Below, one piece after another: positions 33,001 to 39,000 of a stretch of DNA of 64,000 nt. Position numbers: made by a program. The DNA lies in the NCBI GenBank assembly GCA_963825525.1, contig CAWGTN010000002.1, positions 1,248,001 through 1,312,000 on the forward strand, written 5' to 3'. How positions within the stretch are numbered: the stretch's first letter is position 1; each line of letters opens with the position of its first letter. The stretch is from an uncultured Chloroflexia bacterium (GTDB lineage: Bacteria; Chloroflexota; Limnocylindria; QHBO01).

Positions 33001-36000
33001 CGCGGCGATGATCGCCGGCACGCTCGATGCGTTCTACCGGACCCTGATGAGCGGCACGCTGCTCCTTCCGGTGCCGCCGGAGCACGGCGAGCAGGCGAAG
33101 GACGCGCTCGCCTCTGCCGTCAACGACGACGAGCAGGTCGAGATCAGCGTGATGCTGGCCAAGGAGGCGGAGGGGCAACGCGGTCAGCGTGGGCTTCGGG
33201 TCAATCGGCGCGCTGGCGGCCTGGGCGCCGGCAAACACCGGCAATCTGCCGCTGCCGGCACGCATTGCGATCGCGAACCTGGCCGCGGCCGAGCTTGCCG
33301 GCGATCATGGACCCCGCCGGACCCGTCCCGTATCGATTCGACCCCGACGAGCTGGCCGCGCTGGCCGACGGCCGCATACCTGGCTCGAACCAGCCGCTCT
33401 TCGAACCCACCCGCCGGTCCTCCATCCGGGTCCGGGTTCCGCCAGGCCGATACGCGCGACCTCGAGACGAGGCTCGCCCGCGAGCTCGGCGACTACGGAC
33501 GTCGAACACGCCTACCTCGTCGAGACCGAGGCCGATGACGGGAGCCCGCGCCTCCTGCTCGGGTTGGTCGGCGAGCTCGGGACCACGGCCACCGTGGACG
33601 TCCCTGACGGAACCGACGTGGTGTGGCTGGAGGAGCCGCTGCTCGCCCAGGTTCGCGCCGTGGCCGATCCGTTCCACCGGCGTTCGGGCCGATGACGAAC
33701 GGCCTCGAGGTCACCCGCGACGCCGGATTCGTTCGGGTCACGCTCGCGCGGCCGGAGGTGCGCAACGCGTTCAACGCCGAGCTCATCGAGGAGCTGCGGA
33801 CGACGTTCAGCCGGCTCGCCGATGAGCCGGCCGGGACCGTGCGGGGCGTTGTCCTGGCCGGCGAGGGCCGGGTCTTCTGCGCCGGGGCCGACGTGGCGTG
33901 GATGCAGTCGGCGATCGGGATGAGCATCGAGGAGAACGAGCGCGACGCAACGGCCATGCAGGCCATGTTCGAGGCCATCGACGCCTGCCCGATTCCGGTC
34001 ATCGCCCGCGTGCAGGGCGCGGCACTCGGCGGCGGCATGGGACTCTGCGCCGTCGGCGACATCGTGGTCGCCAGCGCCGATGCCTCGTTCGGGTTCACGG
34101 AGACGCAAGCTTGGCCTCATCCCGGCGGTGATCAGCACCTTCGTCGTCCCCAAGATCGGTCCGTCCCATGCGCGGGCGCTCTTCTCGACCGGCGAGCGGT
34201 TCGATGCGGAGCGTGCGCGGGCGATGGGCTTGGTCCACGACGTCGTGGCGGACGAGGAGTCGCTCGACGCGCGCATCGGCGACCTGGTGGCGGAGCTGAC
34301 CACCGCGGGTCCGATGGCCGCCCGCGCTTCGAAGGCGCTGCTGCGGGAGCTCGCCTCGCTCGGTCCGACCGAGGCGCGGCGCCACACGCCCCGCCATATC
34401 GCCCAGCAGCGAACGTCCAGCGAGGGGCAGGAGGGGCTTCGAGCATTCCTCGAGAAGCGGCCGCCGAGCTGGACCGACTAGCCATCCAATGACGTGCCGT
34501 CGGCTCGTGCCTGCGACAATCGCGACGTGAACGACACGCTGTCCCCCAGGGAGGTGGCCGACGCGCTCGGCGTCACGGTGCGCACGGTCCAGCGCTGGAT
34601 CTCGAGCGGCCGGCTGACGGGGCATCGGGTCGGCGGGCGCATGCGCGTGGCACGGGCGTCATTGGGCCAGGTGACCGAGGGCGCGATGCCCGACCCGCCC
34701 CCGGCTCCCCGGATCTCGCGGCTGCTCATCGCGAACCGCGGCGAGATCGCGCGCCGCATCGCCCGGACGGCCCGCGACCTCGGGATCCTGTCGATCGGGA
34801 TCCGGGCACCGGACGACCTGATTCCGCGCGACGTCGACGACGTGCAGCCGGTCACCTCGTACCTCGACGCGGAATCCATCCTGGAGGCGGCGCGCGCCGC
34901 CAATGCGGATGCGATCCACCCGGGCTACGGCTTCGTTGCCGAGAATCCCGACGTCGCGCGGCGCGTGGCCGAGGCCGGGCTCACGTGGGTCGGTCCGCCG
35001 GCAGCCGCGATCTCGGCGATGGGAGACAAGGCCTCGGCACGTCGACTGGCCGCAGCTCACGGCGTCCCGACCGTCCCCGGCTACGACGGCGACGCCCAGG
35101 ATCATGCCGCGCTCGAGGCGGCCGCTGCCGAGATCGGCTATCCGCTGCTCATCAAGCCGTCCGCGGGCGGCGGCGGAAAGGGCATGCGAGTCGTCCACGA
35201 TCCGGCCGAATTGGCCGACGGCCTGGCCGCCGCCCGGCGTGAGGCAACGCGCGCCTTCGGCGACGATCGCCTGGTGCTCGAACGCTTCATGGGCGGCTCG
35301 CGCCACGTCGAGATCCAGGTCCTCTTCGACGCACACGGCGCCGGCGTCCACCTGGGCGAGCGGGACTGCAGCACCCAGCGTCGCAGTCAGAAGATCGTGG
35401 AGGAGTCACCCGCGCCGGGCATGACCGACGACCTTCGCGGCCGAATGGGCCGGGCGGCCCTCGCGGTCGCCGGAGCTGTCGGATATGTCAGCGCCGGGAC
35501 GGTCGAGATGCTCGTGACCGACTCCGGAGAGTTTTACTTCCTCGAGATGAATACTCGGCTCCAGGTCGAGCACCCGGTGACCGAGGCGGTCACCGGACGC
35601 GACCTCGTCGCCGATCAGCTGCGCATCGCGTCCGGCGCGACCCTGGGCGAGATCGGTCTGACGGACGCTCCGCCCTTCGTGGGGCATGCGGTGGAGGCGC
35701 GGGTCTACGCGGAGGATCCCGAAGCGGGCTTTCTGCCGGCCACCGGACGCATCGCCATGCTGCACTGGCCGACGGGCGTGAGGGTGGATGCCGGGATCGA
35801 GGAGGGCGACGAGGTCACCGATCGCTACGACCCGATGCTGGCCAAGGTCATCGCGCATGGCGCCACCCGGTCGGAGGCCATGGACCGGCTGCGATTGGCC
35901 CTGGACGCCACGACCATCCTGGGCCTCCGCACCAACGTGAGATTCCTGCGATGGCTGCTCGATCATCCGACCATGCGGTCGGGCGAGATGCGCACCGACA

Positions 36001-39000
36001 CCCTGGGCTCCATCGAGCTGCCCGAGCCGCCGATCCCGACCGAGGCGCACTGGGGCGTGGCAGCGCGGGCTTTGGCGCCGGCGGACGCCTCCGACCCGTG
36101 GAGCGACGGCTGGCGACTCAATGGTCCAACGGTGCGACGACTCCAGCACGACGGAGTCGAGCGCAGCGTTGCCGTCGAGCTCGGTACGGCCGCGGACGTT
36201 CCGACGGTGGCAGTGGACGGCAACCAGGTCCACGTCGACGTCGAAGGCCAGTCGATGGCGTTCGCGCTGGCCGATCCCCCATCGGTCGAGACGGCCGCCG
36301 CCCACGCATCGGGCGAGGCAGGCGGCCTGGCGACCCTCACGGCGCCCATGCCCGGGCGCGTGATCTCGGTTCGGGTGATGCCCAACGCGGCCGTCGCCGC
36401 ACGCGAGGCGATCGTCATCATCGAGGCGATGAAGATGGAGCACGCGGTGGTCGCCCCGATCGACGGCACGGTCGCCCGAATCAACGTCGAGGAGGGCCAG
36501 CAGGTCCAGCGCGGCGATCTCCTCGCCGAGATCGCGCCCTACCATGGCGAGCATGGTTGACCACGACGTCCGCATCTACGAGGTGGGCCCACGGGACGGG
36601 CTGCAGAACGAGGCGGCGCCGATCCCCACGGCATCCAAGCTGCGCTTCATCTCGAAGCTGGCCGATGCAGGACTGCGCGAGATCGAGGCCACCAGCTTCG
36701 TGTCGCCGCGGGCCATTCCACAGTTGGCCGATGCGGACGAGCTGATGGCGGGGCTCGAACAGCGGCCGGGGGTCAGGTATCCGGTCCTGGTTCCGAACGA
36801 GCGGGGCATGGCCCGCGCCGAGGCCAGCGGCGCCCGGGCGGCAGCCGTCTTCACGGCGGCCTCGGAGCCGTTCACTCGTGCCAACATCAACATGACGATC
36901 GCGGAGTCGATCGAAGCATTTCGGCCCGTGATCGGCCGCGCGCGCGAGCTCGGATGGTGGACCCGCGCCTATGTCAGCACCGCGTTCGGATGTCCGTACC
37001 AGGGCGAGGTCGGCGAGGCTGCCGTGGTGGCCGTCGCGCAGGAGCTCGCGGCCCTGGGCGTGGATGAGCTGAGCATCGGCGACACCATCGGCGTTGCCGG
37101 CACCGTCGGACGTACGACGTGTCATCGACGCTCTCGAGACGGCCGGAATTGGCGTGGATCGGCTGGCCATGCACTTTCACGACACTCGCGGGACGGCGCT
37201 CGCCAACGTCGGCGCGGCCCTGGAGCGCGGCATTCGGTGCTTCGACTCCTCGACCGGCGGCACCGGCGGCTGTCCATATGCCCCCGGCGCGGCCGGCAAC
37301 CTCGCCACCGAGGACCTGGTCTATCTCCTCGACCGAGAGGGGCTGTCTCACGGCGTCAATCTGGACGGGGTGCTGGATGCGGCGCGCGACATCAGCGCAA
37401 CCCTGAATCGCCCGCTCGCGACGAAGGTGGGCCAAGCCGGTGGCTGGCGATTACCATAGGCGCCCGATGGACGCCGACAGCCCAGCCCACCCCGAGCCGC
37501 GCCCCCTGATCCTCGACGTGGATACCGGGATCGACGACATGATCGCCCTGCTCATCGCGGCGACGAGTCCCGAGATCAACCTCCGTGGCGTCACCTGTGT
37601 CGCCGGCAACGTCGAGATCCACCACGTGGCGCGCAATACCGGCAAGATCCTGCGCATGGTCGGCCGCGGCGATGTCCCGGTCTCCATCGGGGCGGCTCGA
37701 CCGCTCCAGCGACGGCTGCGGACGGCCCCCGACACGCATGGGCCAACGGGAACCGGGTACGTCGAGCTGCGCGGCGAGGATCGCCAGCTCGGCACGACCG
37801 AGTACACCGCCATCCCGGCCAGCCGCTATCTCGGCGCGCATGTCGCCCGCCATCCCGGTGATGTCACGGTCCTCGCCCTCGGGCCGCTCACCAACCTCGC
37901 CTCGGCCGTGCAGCAGAACGTCGACCTGGCCGGGGGGACCCGCGAGGTCATCTGGATGGGAGGCACGCTCGAGGAGCGCGGGAACACGACCGAGACCGGC
38001 GAGTGGAACGCGTGCGTCGACCCGGAGGCAGTCGAGATCTGCCTGGCGGCAGGCGCCGTGCATCGCATGTTTCCGCTGGACGCCACGCAGGACATCGTGT
38101 TCAGCATGGACGACCTGCGCGCCCTGCCCGACACCCATCTCGCCGGCATCGTGCGCGACGCCATCCGCTTCTACGTCGCCTTCCACCAGAAGGCGGATGG
38201 CATCGACGGCGCGTACCTCCACGATCCCGTGGTCCTCATCGGCTCACTGCTGAGGCCGGACCTGGTGACGGAGACCGTGACCGAGCGACTGGCATGCGAC
38301 ACGAGCTCGGATGCCCACCTGGCGGGGAGCCTGTACCGCGCCGAGAACGACGACCGACCGTCCATCTCGGTAGCCACGGCGATTGACGCCGATGGCATGA
38401 AGTCGGAGCTCATCAAGCGCCTCGGCCGCGCCGTCGGCGCCCCCAACAGCTGACCACGCGTCAAGGGACGGAGGAGAGGTCACCCATGCTGCTTCGCTGG
38501 ATTGCTGCCGTTGCCGTGTTTCTCGTCGTCGCCGCCATCGGCATCGTCGGCTTTGGAAACTTCGAAACAGGCATCGACCCCGAGAGCTTCTTCGATAGCG
38601 AGGGGGCGAACTCGTTCGCGCTCGTTCTTGCAATTGCCGTCATCGTCGGGTTCGTCGCCTACGCGCTGGTCGAGTATCTCCAGACGAGGGCCCTCGCGTC
38701 GATCTCTCGCCAGTTCGACACCCGCACCATCGTGCTCATGCCGGTGGCCATCGCGATCAACATCATCCTGGGCGCGGCGGTGGCCAATGCGCTGAAGCTG
38801 CCGATCTACCTCGACAGCATCGGCACCATCCTGGTCGGCGCTCTGGCCGGACCCATTCCGGGCGCCCTGACCGGGTTCCTCTCGAACCTGCTGTGGACCT
38901 ACGTGATTCCGCCTCCCTTCCAGAACGGTCCGGCCGCGGCATTCGCCATCGTGGCCGCGGTCATCGGCCTGCTCGCCGGACTGGCCGGCCGGATGGGCTG

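Follow-up and report, generated by a model that had tools for sequence, protein, structure and literature searches.

PutA, BirA and NadR are bifunctional enzyme-repressors, also known as 'trigger enzymes'. Leucine and isovalerate genes in Proteobacteria are regulated by LiuR, a MerR-type regulator that is a separate dimeric protein with a palindromic site. The DNA-binding domain of BirA is N-terminal (PMC4016012). The regulator BldC binds DNA head to tail, with one 9-bp direct repeat per protomer, and its optimised site, CAATTCGGACAATTCGGACA, contains GACAAT at a 9-bp period. Bases are read in BldC by Lys26, Arg30, Trp31 and the wing residues His46 and Arg48 (PMC5859096), and in RacA by Lys15 and Arg19 (PMC4914108).

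The window, that is, the whole stretch of 64,000 nucleotides analyzed from an uncultured Chloroflexia bacterium of soil, contains the organism's only gene for a methylcrotonyl-CoA carboxylase (MCC) alpha subunit (mccA), which is complete and has a winged helix-turn-helix (wHTH) domain added in front. The features of the locus are listed in Table 1. The open reading frame opens at 34494, and the GTG at 34527 gives the protein of 677 residues. The Pfam domains of the initial annotation were reproduced: HTH_17 (40.9 bits, cut-off 27), Biotin_carb_N (residues 63-162), CPSase_L_D2 (167-375), Biotin_carb_C (390-493), BT_MCC_alpha (PF21139) and Biotin_lipoyl. The BT_MCC_alpha match reached 28.9 bits, slightly below its cut-off of 31; the region nevertheless lies inside the full-length alignment to 3u9s_A, the Pseudomonas aeruginosa MCC alpha subunit, which is the best solved relative of the carboxylase part (E 4e-152, residues 61-669). 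In the biotin-attachment motif, A634 never varies, and M635, K636 and M637 hardly do. The excisionase-family HTH claimed for the N-terminus was confirmed by HTH_17 and in-frame orthologues, and the excisionase model TIGR01764 is passed with the same value as before (43.7 bits, cut-off 28.8). The BldC subfamily model gave 30.6-30.9 bits, far below its cut-off of 77, and the MerR Pfam model 19.9 bits, below 28.2. In the AF2 model, the HTH is carried by a flexible linker (mean pLDDT 53 for residues 51-60) and lies peripheral to the biotin carboxylase domain; both the length and the sequence of the linker vary among homologues.

Table 1. Features of the HTH-mccA locus (positions in the window).
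Feature	Position	Strand	Remarks
MCC beta (carboxyltransferase) gene	30441..32165	+	Frameshifted here; indels relative to short-read contigs at 31561, 31748 and 31875
Enoyl-CoA hydratase gene	33623..34481	+	Frameshift near 34100; three contig pieces crossing there, one gap each
TGCGACAATCGCGAC, candidate operator and extended -10 promoter	34512..34526	+	Directly abuts the GTG start
HTH-mccA gene	34527..36560	+	677 aa; GTG start, stop 36558-36560; full-length in-frame orthologues in congeners
Excisionase/BldC-type winged HTH, residues 5-46	34539..34664	+	Pfam HTH_17, TIGR01764, AF2 fold, Foldseek
Pro/Ala-rich linker, about residues 47-62	34665..34712	+	Low pLDDT, unconserved columns
Biotin carboxylase (ATP-grasp) domains, residues 63-493	34713..36005	+	Pfam; relative of 3u9s_A
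BT domain, MCC alpha type, residues 512-582	36060..36272	+	PF21139 below cut-off; alignment to 3u9s_A
Biotinyl (BCCP) domain, residues 603-669	36333..36533	+	Pfam Biotin_lipoyl, 61 bits; A-M-K-M biotin-attachment motif
HMG-CoA lyase gene	36544..37456	+	Frameshift near 37070-37100

The locus is a conserved chromosomal catabolic operon with no integrase, att site or mobile element involved. The neighbors named earlier (carboxyltransferase, enoyl-CoA hydratase and HMG-CoA lyase) were borne out, as were the frameshifts, which affect all three genes in this assembly; the same genes are intact at a congener locus (L013). The intact 532-aa carboxyltransferase of a congener matches MCC beta (3u9r_B) at 762 bits. 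Judging by gene context, the hydratase is a methylglutaconyl-CoA hydratase; its stop lies 45 nt 5' of the mccA start, and the HMG-CoA lyase gene overlaps the mccA end by 17 nt. Short-read soil contigs span positions 34283-37095. No indels were found among the listed contig pieces lying wholly inside mccA, the HTH/carboxylase junction is indel-free in the pieces of independent short-read origin that span it, and the same runs reveal single-base indels in the neighboring genes. The fusion is thus real, and the frameshifts of the neighboring genes look like consensus errors of the assembly. The matches without stops given earlier for genomes G002 (residues 1-671) and G018 (residues 1-675) were also obtained again.

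Within the class, the fusion was found in 95 of 103 genomes of family f1, in about half of those of family f3 (48/91), and in none of the 92 f2 genomes, where mccA stands unfused. The mccA of three f2 genomes has neither the HTH nor the 15-nt motif and adjoins or overlaps the preceding gene. The description of the fusion as common in Limnocylindria-type proteins thus holds for two families only. Residues 1-130 as a query retrieved 1205 proteins at E<=0.001 among 8000 scored candidates, in place of the 672 homologues counted earlier; the statement that all 120 listed homologues carry PF12728 and carboxylase domains stood. A literature search found no papers on an HTH-MCC alpha fusion.

The HTH is under purifying selection as strong as that on the catalytic core. 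Across 53 homologues with 59-70% overall identity and an unconserved linker, residues R19, T20, V21, Q22, R23, W24, G28, L30, G36, R38 and R40 are invariant. The AF2 fold of the domain is beta-alpha-alpha-wing-alpha, with the recognition helix at residues 18-27 and a beta-hairpin wing at residues 32-42. The top Foldseek matches were mycobacteriophage Pukovnik Xis (TM 0.71-0.78, 40% identity), BldC-DNA, RdfS and RacA-DNA; the profile search returned 4j2n (E 7.6e-9), RacA (1.7e-6) and BldC (6e-5). Residues R19, R23, W24, R38 and R40 align with the five base-reading residues of BldC in the order given above, and Lys15 and Arg19 of RacA fall on R19 and R23. The domain retains the base-reading residues of both proteins, and DNA binding is predicted.

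An operator, unsought in the initial annotation, was now sought, and a strong candidate was obtained: the near-invariant 15-nt direct-repeat element TGCGACAATCGCGAC abutting the start of the fused gene, which is the new observation of this study. Relative to the G of GTG, it comprises TG at -15/-14, GACAAT at -12 to -7 and CGCGAC at -6 to -1. It is made of 9-bp direct-repeat units (..GCGAC|AATCGCGAC|GTG..), and the unit at the mccA start reads CGACAATCG and runs on into CGACATG or CGACGTG. This is the sole exact copy in the 2.58-Mb genome. Of 42 f1 genomes, drawn from many genera, 37 have an exact copy and the other five a copy with one mismatch, and the mean top-base frequency in these 42 genomes was 0.99 in the motif versus 0.42 across the 59 nt upstream. 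Among congeners, 42 of 61 have an exact copy; the element adjoins mccA in all 34 genomes with coordinates of both (hand comparison). The sequence GCGACAATCGCGAC plus a start codon occurs in 28/29 loci from other f1 genera, and 21 f3 loci contain related forms of the element, one subgroup having two to four tandem 9-mers. Leaderless genes are marked by a -10-like signal some 12 nt ahead of the start codon (PMC3160421), and TGCGACAATCGCGAC has the look of an extended -10 promoter that would give a leaderless mRNA. The locus was present in none of the RNA runs searched, so the transcript start is a predicted one. All three genomic occurrences of TGCGACAAT have a start codon 6-7 nt on that opens a reading frame of at least 100 aa. 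The carboxyltransferase gene has its own -10, GATAAT, at 30427-30432, 8 nt 5' of its ATG; as an internal control, this leaderless-type promoter keeps ATAATCGG alone, at a variable distance from the ATG.

Because a DNA-binding-type domain lies at the N-terminus and a near-invariant 15-base repeat on the gene start, the fused enzyme may well switch off its own gene. That it represses its own leaderless promoter is a tentative proposal, to which we give a little less than an even chance. The mccA promoter would be an extended -10 (TGnGACAAT) placed for transcription to start at the start codon, yielding a leaderless mRNA, and the -10, the next six bases and the start codon all lie within a tandem array of two to three 9-bp direct repeats (YGCGAC-AWT). 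The HTH domains of alpha subunits, either free or in the alpha6beta6 holoenzyme, could sit on the repeats and block RNA polymerase, and the enzyme would thereby limit its own synthesis. Polymerase occlusion is expected for a bound protein because the element sits at the -10 and start codon. We infer both the sign of regulation and that the element is bound by this HTH rather than by another protein. Modulation of the kind that 'trigger enzyme' means, whether by substrate, by biotinylation or by assembly with the beta subunit, is pure conjecture. Autorepression is favored by a repeat type (9-bp period, GACAAT) that fits the domain family, whose winged-helix domains bind such repeats head to tail, by a real and conserved fusion with a selected HTH and retained base-reading residues, and by the lack of both HTH and motif in f2 relatives with unfused mccA. 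Against it, much of the 15-mer is needed by any extended -10 promoter, the surplus coming down to six bases, CGCGAC, and the fixed spacing, and the AT-rich part read by the BldC wing is present in the central repeat unit only. The recognition helix and the motif hardly vary, which leaves no covariation by which to connect them; that f2 lacks both HTH and motif is what any new 5' module would show, and it is drawn from genomes that are related.

The 15-mer might instead be merely a strong, precisely spaced extended -10 of leaderless mccA or the site of another regulator, with the MccA HTH binding elsewhere or without strong sequence preference; we regard this as rather unlikely. There is an exact match to the extended -10 consensus in the TG at -15/-14, the A at -11 and the T at -7, and the location of TGCGACAAT 5' of start codons and of the carboxyltransferase -10 just 5' of its ATG agrees with such a promoter; however, conservation of 15/15 positions and a fixed spacing across many genera is unexpected for an ordinary one, and the carboxyltransferase promoter of the same genomes is not so conserved. 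A second candidate binder is a free-standing HTH_17 protein of 61 aa. Very highly conserved (73-100% identity), it was found in f1 (64/66) and f3 (56/60) and in none of 66 f2 genomes, but an alignment by eye shows no Lys/Arg or Trp in it to correspond to BldC K26 and W31, and no GCGAC repeats were found upstream of its gene. Tandem GCGACA 9-mers also precede gyrA in the genus (9/9 sites fetched) and are absent at all 30 f3 gyrA loci, 13 of them from fusion-bearing genomes, so the repeats are not tied one-to-one to the fusion; the genome nevertheless has no second exact copy of the mccA element.

Re-use of the HTH outside DNA binding, in beta-subunit contact, holoenzyme assembly, filaments or binding of another protein partner, would suit its flexible linker and peripheral position, the protein-protein contacts that family domains (BldC) make on oligomerisation, and the substrate-enhanced MCC filaments in Legionella that are the subject of a 2025 preprint. 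This is improbable: the invariant R19, R23, W24 and wing arginines touch DNA in solved relatives, residues 5-46 contain eight arginines versus two acidic residues (hand count), and unfused MCC functions without such a domain both in family f2 and in every solved structure. Still less probable is a nucleoid tether or general DNA-coating domain without gene-specific regulation; RacA, with its near-identical recognition helix, does coat DNA non-specifically besides its specific sites, but such a role would leave unexplained the near-invariant element where the gene starts, and offers no reason for localising a catabolic enzyme on DNA. An assembly or gene-calling artefact or a decaying remnant, as the frameshifted neighbors might suggest, has a negligible chance and is refuted by in-frame orthologues in dozens of genomes, the architecture of all 120 listed database proteins, the indel-free junction in independent short-read contig pieces and the invariant HTH columns.

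Among known systems, the excisionases (Pukovnik Xis, 4j2n; RdfS, 8dgl) come closest in both sequence and fold (40% identity, E 7.6e-9, TM up to 0.78), and the fusion HTH passes their model, whereas here the domain belongs to a housekeeping catabolic enzyme in a chromosomal operon free of mobile elements. BldC of Streptomyces (6amk, 6ama) shares the wHTH fold (38% identity, TM 0.67-0.80), the equivalents of Lys26, Arg30 and Trp31, a basic wing, and GACAAT in both its optimised repeat and the mccA element; unlike the N-terminus of a 677-aa enzyme, it is a free developmental regulator of 68 aa, the fusion HTH scores only about 31 bits against the BldC cut-off, and the mccA repeats, a candidate site only, are GC-rich except for AAT. 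RacA of Bacillus subtilis (5i41, 5i44) has a nearly identical recognition helix (TVQRW), with invariant R19 and R23 at its Lys15 and Arg19 positions, and in both proteins a flexible linker joins the DNA-binding domain to the rest. RacA, however, uses a GC-rich palindrome, wing-wing dimers and chromosome anchoring via a coiled coil, in contrast to a direct-repeat candidate site and an enzyme.

With P. aeruginosa MCC (3u9s, 3u9r), the fusion protein aligns end to end over its carboxylase part, a congener's beta subunit matches 3u9r_B, and its operon includes the hydratase and HMG-CoA lyase; in contrast, all solved alpha-subunit matches begin at about query residue 41 or later, and therefore none covers the HTH. 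LiuR likewise has a MerR-superfamily HTH and governs the same pathway, whereas the HTH of the fusion is covalently joined to the enzyme and lacks the MerR coiled coil. Compared with PutA, BirA and NadR, the fusion differs in its Xis/BldC wHTH fold, in being a biotin-dependent carboxylase subunit of a dodecamer with a predicted leaderless promoter, and in having no known ligand-dependent switch, but like them it has a candidate target in the promoter of its own gene.

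From its sequence, MccA is a candidate for a conserved, lineage-wide enzyme-regulator, in which an excisionase-type HTH precedes the alpha subunit of methylcrotonyl-CoA carboxylase (MCC). The mccA reading frame is open from 34494, and the GTG at 34527 gives a product of 677 residues. The Pfam domains and the TIGR01764 score of the initial annotation, which had proposed an HTH-carboxylase fusion and a possible autoregulating trigger enzyme, were obtained again with the same values, and the carboxyltransferase, enoyl-CoA hydratase and HMG-CoA lyase it listed as neighbours were found beside mccA. 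Residues 61-669 of MccA match the P. aeruginosa MCC alpha subunit (3u9s_A, residues 6-650) end to end with an E value of 4e-152, and this single alignment spans the BT region, whose PF21139 score lies slightly below the cut-off. The MccA sequence contains EAMKMEH; an alignment of 53 homologues shows no variation at A634 and next to none at M635, K636 and M637. The A-M-K-M motif of the BCCP domain is what we take to be the site of the biotinyl-lysine. The matches to solved alpha subunits all begin at query residue ~41 or later, and none of them covers the HTH. The carboxyltransferase of a congener scored 762 bits against MCC beta vs 432 bits against geranyl-CoA carboxylase beta and ~260 bits against PCC beta, and the hydratase and HMG-CoA lyase genes, frameshifted in the window itself, share the operon with the MCC genes. 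The two other biotin carboxylase paralogues of the genome have no HTH. On these comparisons, MccA passes as an MCC alpha subunit, with a borderline score for the BT domain.

Features of the mccA cluster and related loci of the same genome (window positions, unless residues of MccA or contigs C1-C3 of the genome are named)
Feature	Position	Strand	Remarks
-10-like GATAAT + 8 nt	30427-30440	+	followed by the carboxyltransferase ATG
Carboxyltransferase gene	30441..32165	+	frameshifted
SseB-domain gene	32584-33692	+	split over three frames; unbroken at L013:6084-7430 (congener locus)
Enoyl-CoA hydratase gene	33623..34481	+	frameshifted
15-nt element	34512-34526	+	TGCGACAATCGCGAC
mccA	34527..36560	+	677 aa, GTG start
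HTH_17 (PF12728)	residues 5-46		40.9 bits, cut-off 27
Biotin_carb_N (PF00289)	residues 63-162		96.9 bits
CPSase_L_D2 (PF02786, ATP-grasp)	residues 167-375		232.8 bits
Biotin_carb_C (PF02785)	residues 390-493		122 bits
BT_MCC_alpha (PF21139)	residues 512-582		28.9 bits, cut-off 31
Biotin_lipoyl (BCCP)	residues 603-669		61 bits
HMG-CoA lyase gene	36544..37456	+	frameshifted
Genus-conserved region 3' of the lyase	37440-39589	+
61-aa HTH_17 protein	C1:32368-32550
Tandem repeats upstream of gyrA	C2:1491937-1491963		CGCGACATT CGCGACATT CGCGACAAT
Other GCGACA-N3-GCGACA copies	C2:1204896, C2:1206422
Other TGCGACAAT copies	C2:636506, C3:17132		ORFs of 168 and 160 aa
HTH_17 in ~1100-aa open frame	C2:1627034-1627180	-	47.4 bits

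An SseB N-terminal domain protein (PF07179, 47.5 bits in the congener) of 448 aa is encoded between the carboxyltransferase and the hydratase throughout the genus. Two proteins are encoded in the genus-conserved region 3' of the lyase. One is an inosine-uridine nucleoside hydrolase (PF01156, 235.7 bits); the other, of 356-367 aa, weakly matches the S component of ECF transporters in the congener (19.9 bits, below the cut-off).

The genome assembly comprises 2.58 Mb in four contigs. The neighbouring genes had been noted as frameshifted in it, and four of them (carboxyltransferase, SseB-domain gene, hydratase and lyase) are indeed broken in the window, while in the congener locus L013 they are unbroken and encode 532, 448, 285 and 304 aa, respectively. 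Window positions 30400-37600 were compared with contigs from four short-read soil runs (two studies), which represent near-identical strains and are other DNA than that of the window. Single-base indels between these contigs and the window were listed at 31561, 31748, 31875, 32333, 32360, 32447, 32508, 32615, 32634, 33017, 33441 and 33491, with 17 further indels beyond these 12. One gap was present in each of three contig pieces across the hydratase frameshift and in each of two pieces spanning that of the lyase. No indel was found in the listed pieces inside mccA (34505-34932, 34674-34886, 34707-35107, 35147-35585, 35300-35585, 35556-35857 and 35825-36287), in the piece across its start (34283-34645) or in the one running past its end (35556-37095). 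The simplest reading is that the neighbours owe their frameshifts to consensus errors, with the HTH-carboxylase junction correct. The claim of an in-frame fusion in congeners also stands, as most of 24 congeners have an orthologue that aligns from residue 1-4 to ~670 with no stop, and PF12728 plus carboxylase domains are present in every one of the 120 database homologues listed for residues 1-130. Other gene calls in this genome may suffer from single-base indels as window 30441-37456 does.

The 68-residue N-terminus was used as a query against five families of the same class (E ≤ 1e-6). Matches were obtained in 95 of 103 genomes of f1, the family that includes the genus of the window, and in 48/91 genomes of f3, and in none of the genomes of f2 (0/92), f4 (0/12) and f5 (0/2). 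They were nearly always single-copy and located in open frames of ~670-750 aa; five of the 48 f3 genomes had matches solely in open frames shorter than 400 aa, which leaves ~43 clearly fused. In three f2 genomes, mccA starts straight with the biotin carboxylase domain and adjoins the gene before it or overlaps with it. Six f3 genomes in which no match covered the HTH (G026, G028, G034, G036, G038 and G040) gave only paralogue-level matches, from residue ~50-60 in the biotin carboxylase region with 45-48% identity, and may lack MCC entirely. A phylum-wide draw of 401 genomes gave matches in f1 only (16/16) at E ≤ 1e-25, a threshold that also misses known f3 fusions and says little about other classes. 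The source names on database homologues were 'Candidatus Limnocylindria' and 'Chloroflexota'. The counts for the class, the element and the 61-aa HTH protein described below include a small number of genomes marked as unpublished (G006, G050, G075, G137, G146, G164, G204 and G282), and no claim depends solely on them.

The TIGR01764 (excisionase) score of MccA was 43.7 bits (cut-off 28.8) and rose to 47.5-47.9 bits for the domain alone. Among 53 full-length homologues (59-70% identical to the protein of the window), the HTH is one of the best-conserved stretches, with invariant A11, L14, R19, T20, V21, Q22, R23, W24, G28, L30, G36, R38, R40 and L46; the linker that follows is conserved in neither sequence nor length. 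In the AlphaFold2 model built on this alignment (mean pLDDT 89.3), the N-terminus is composed of a short strand, helices 7-14 and 18-27, a hairpin 32-42 and a helix 43-50, followed by low-confidence linker residues 51-60 (mean pLDDT 53); the HTH modelled alone reached a pLDDT of 80. The N-terminus is thereby predicted to form a winged helix-turn-helix (wHTH). Foldseek matched it to Xis of mycobacteriophage Pukovnik (TM 0.71-0.78, 40% identity), as well as to two BldC-DNA complexes (38% identity), the excisionase RdfS and RacA-DNA, and a profile of 37 N-termini matched the solved proteins 4j2n (7.6e-9), RacA (1.7e-6) and BldC (6e-5). PMC5859096 describes Lys26 and Arg30 of the BldC recognition helix as reading bases, Arg30 via a 5'-YpG-3' contact, Trp31 as kinking the DNA, and His46, Arg47 and Arg48 of the wing as entering the AT-rich minor groove; for RacA, two base-contacting residues, Lys15 and Arg19, are named in PMC4914108. 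These base-reading, kinking and wing positions align with R19, R23, W24, R38 and R40 of MccA, all of which are invariant, and the domain appears to have all that a DNA-reading member of the fold needs. It fell below the cut-offs of the BldC subfamily model NF033787 (30.6-30.9 bits vs 77) and of the MerR model PF00376 (19.9 bits vs 28.2). No coiled-coil dimerisation helix or effector domain comes after the HTH, which is followed by the disordered linker and then the biotin carboxylase domain. Elsewhere in the genome, HTH_17 lies near the N-terminus of a ~1100-aa open frame, and many other genomes of the class show the same placement in a large open frame (976-1224 aa).

Of the database homologues, some whose annotated start lies further upstream open with an odd peptide, CDNRD, which was the clue to the 15-nt element directly adjoining the mccA GTG. 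This is its sole exact copy in the genome. Of 61 genomes in the genus, 56 have the element with no more than one mismatch and 42 have it exactly; in 34/34 genomes with both coordinates returned, the exact copy adjoins the mccA start (compared by hand). In other f1 genera, GCGACAATCGCGAC is followed at once by ATG or GTG in 28/29 loci, the 29th having one change. In 42 f1 genomes (37 with the exact 15-mer and 5 with one mismatch), the commonest base had on average a frequency of 0.99 at -15 to -1 vs 0.42 over 59 upstream positions. The gene upstream of mccA varies among the loci bearing the element, which thus moves together with mccA rather than with the operon. The 21 f3 loci form two subgroups by their start-region sequence. 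The first has (A)TGCGACAATCGCG(A/C)C and ~3 nt before the ATG; the second has a TTGACA -35 box and then 2-4 tandem 9-mers (nnCGACAnn), the last of which, CGCGACATT, gives the -10, with the start codon 6-9 nt on. No Rfam match was found at E ≤ 1 across window 33500-35500.

With the first base of the start codon taken as +1, the TG of the element occupies -15/-14 and its GACAAT spans -12 to -7, which puts an A at -11 and a T at -7. TG and a -10 hexamer at such positions represent the canonical extended -10 geometry, and the element would start transcription at the mccA start codon. A simple sigma-70 scan of window 29500-39800, which requires a -35 hexamer, returned 0 sites; an extended -10 promoter can do without this hexamer. 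All three genome copies of TGCGACAAT and four of the five copies of TGNGACAAT are followed by a start codon at +6 or +7 and an ORF of at least 100 aa. The other two TGCGACAAT copies lie 6-7 nt 5' of ORF starts, placements that would fit if extended -10, leaderless promoters were a general design of this organism. At the carboxyltransferase gene, (G/C)ATAATCGG is found 4-5 nt before the ATG in ten loci of the genus, so that the cluster may have a second leaderless promoter. According to PMC3160421, leaderless genes are marked by a -10-like signal ~12 nt before the start codon, also in some Chloroflexi. Based on the extended -10 geometry, the placement of TGCGACAAT and TGNGACAAT, the carboxyltransferase parallel and this published mark, we infer that the element serves at least as the promoter of a leaderless mccA mRNA within the apparent operon. 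None of the listed runs that contain the locus is on record as RNA.

The element can also be read as a direct repeat with a 9-bp period, ..TGCGAC, AATCGCGAC and (A/G)TGnnCGA(C/T), the third unit being GTGCGCGAC in several f1 genera. According to PMC5859096, one BldC protomer occupies each 9-bp direct repeat (consensus AATTnnnn(C)), and the optimised site CAATTCGGACAATTCGGACA has GACAAT at 9-bp spacing. The CA of GACA is the CA/TG step read by BldC Arg30, and the unit at mccA, CGACAATCG, is the same as that of BldC, GGACAATTC, at 6/9 positions. The relatives without the HTH domain are also without the repeats. In the genome of the window, GCGACA-N3-GCGACA occurs four times, including two overlapping copies at gyrA, and as a sign of a wider regulon GCGACA at spacing 9 showed no clear enrichment over spacings 12 or 13.

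Upstream of gyrA (40-130 nt), tandem (T/C)GCGACAnn 9-mers of 2-3 units were present at 9/9 genus sites fetched (L075-L083); those in the genome of the window stand 41 nt before the gyrA start, counted from the first repeat base. The region upstream of gyrA showed no repeats in 30 f3 loci (13 belonging to fusion-bearing genomes) or in 11 f2 loci, those of 22 fetched that were read on the strand of the gene. Because they are present at gyrA in the genus and missing at f3 gyrA despite the fusion, the repeats are no simple signature of the fusion, and gyrA may have become a target later or be that of a different protein. As a phyletic test of the link to the fusion, the gyrA repeats were rejected (f3 0/30, with or without fusion).

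A credible alternative is that the element is bound not by MccA but by a stand-alone 61-aa HTH_17 protein. This protein is 73-100% identical across f1 and f3, where it is present in 64/66 and 56/60 genomes, respectively, and was not found in f2 (0/66); this level of conservation fits a global or nucleoid-associated regulator. Its score on the BldC model was 32 bits, below the cut-off of 77. However, when aligned by eye, it has neither the Lys/Arg nor the Trp that would correspond to BldC K26 and W31, and its own gene has no such repeats upstream, on which ground autoregulation of that gene via the same repeats was rejected.

If the element were only a promoter, a conserved and unexplained domain fusion would remain. 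Promoter function alone accounts for 9 of the 15 bases of the element. The carboxyltransferase promoter serves as a natural control: there, only ATAATCGG is kept, the spacing is variable and tandem GAC repeats are absent, whereas at mccA all 15 positions and the spacing are fixed.

Negative autoregulation of mccA by the HTH of MccA, with the element as a candidate operator, is the best supported mechanism, since the fold binds tandem repeats, the base-reading residues are kept, the repeats stand at its own gene and unfused relatives are without them; we rate its chances at a little under even. The repeats cover the -10, the putative start site and the start codon of the gene encoding the HTH. 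The HTH domains of the alpha subunits would occupy the 9-bp repeats head-to-tail and exclude RNA polymerase. In the structure of P. aeruginosa MCC, the enzyme is reportedly an alpha6beta6 dodecamer with three alpha subunits per end; a holoenzyme of this kind would present clustered HTHs on flexible linkers, favouring the cooperative occupation of two to three repeats. As the alpha and beta genes have separate predicted promoters, such feedback could balance the supply of subunits. Both the helix and the motif are nearly invariant, so no covariation ties one to the other. A far-reaching extension, which we consider improbable, is that alpha6beta6 acts as a multivalent BldC-like factor, its three HTHs per end polymerising on tandem 9-bp GCGACA repeats and its binding depending on its assembly, its biotinylation or the turnover of methylcrotonyl-CoA. 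In that case, leucine/isovalerate flux would set the synthesis of the enzyme itself and, in f1, also reach other promoters with such repeats, gyrA among them, coupling the catabolic state to DNA supercoiling.

Enzymes doubling as transcription factors are few, and each is instructive on the link between metabolism and gene expression. The target proposed here is sharply defined, a 15-base element on the gene's own start that is conserved across a large, abundant group of uncultured soil Chloroflexota. If negative autoregulation is true, the BldC/Xis head-to-tail recognition of 9-bp direct repeats would extend to an HTH that is part of a large oligomeric enzyme, and mccA would be a clean case of repression at a leaderless promoter. 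The literature search, with most subscription journals outside its range, found no paper on an HTH fused to a biotin-dependent carboxylase, and we know of no carboxylase subunit with a built-in DNA-binding domain. As the initial annotation had stated, the architecture already exists in databases, where automatic naming has labelled it, for example, 'excisionase family DNA binding protein'.

Compared with BldC, a small stand-alone wHTH, the HTH of MccA is instead fused to a ~615-residue enzyme. The equivalents of Lys26, Arg30 and Trp31 and of the basic wing are kept in it, candidate 9-bp repeats lie at the start of mccA itself, and head-to-tail binding is predicted by analogy. Judged by its sequence, the domain is an excisionase-family wHTH, probably most BldC-like in its working, outside the BldC subfamily and no canonical MerR protein. 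Like trigger enzymes, MccA combines an enzyme and an HTH in one polypeptide, with a candidate operator at its own promoter. The known enzyme-repressor fusions include PutA, BirA and NadR, from which MccA differs in fold, enzyme class, oligomeric state and promoter type; by analogy, MccA as a whole belongs with this group.
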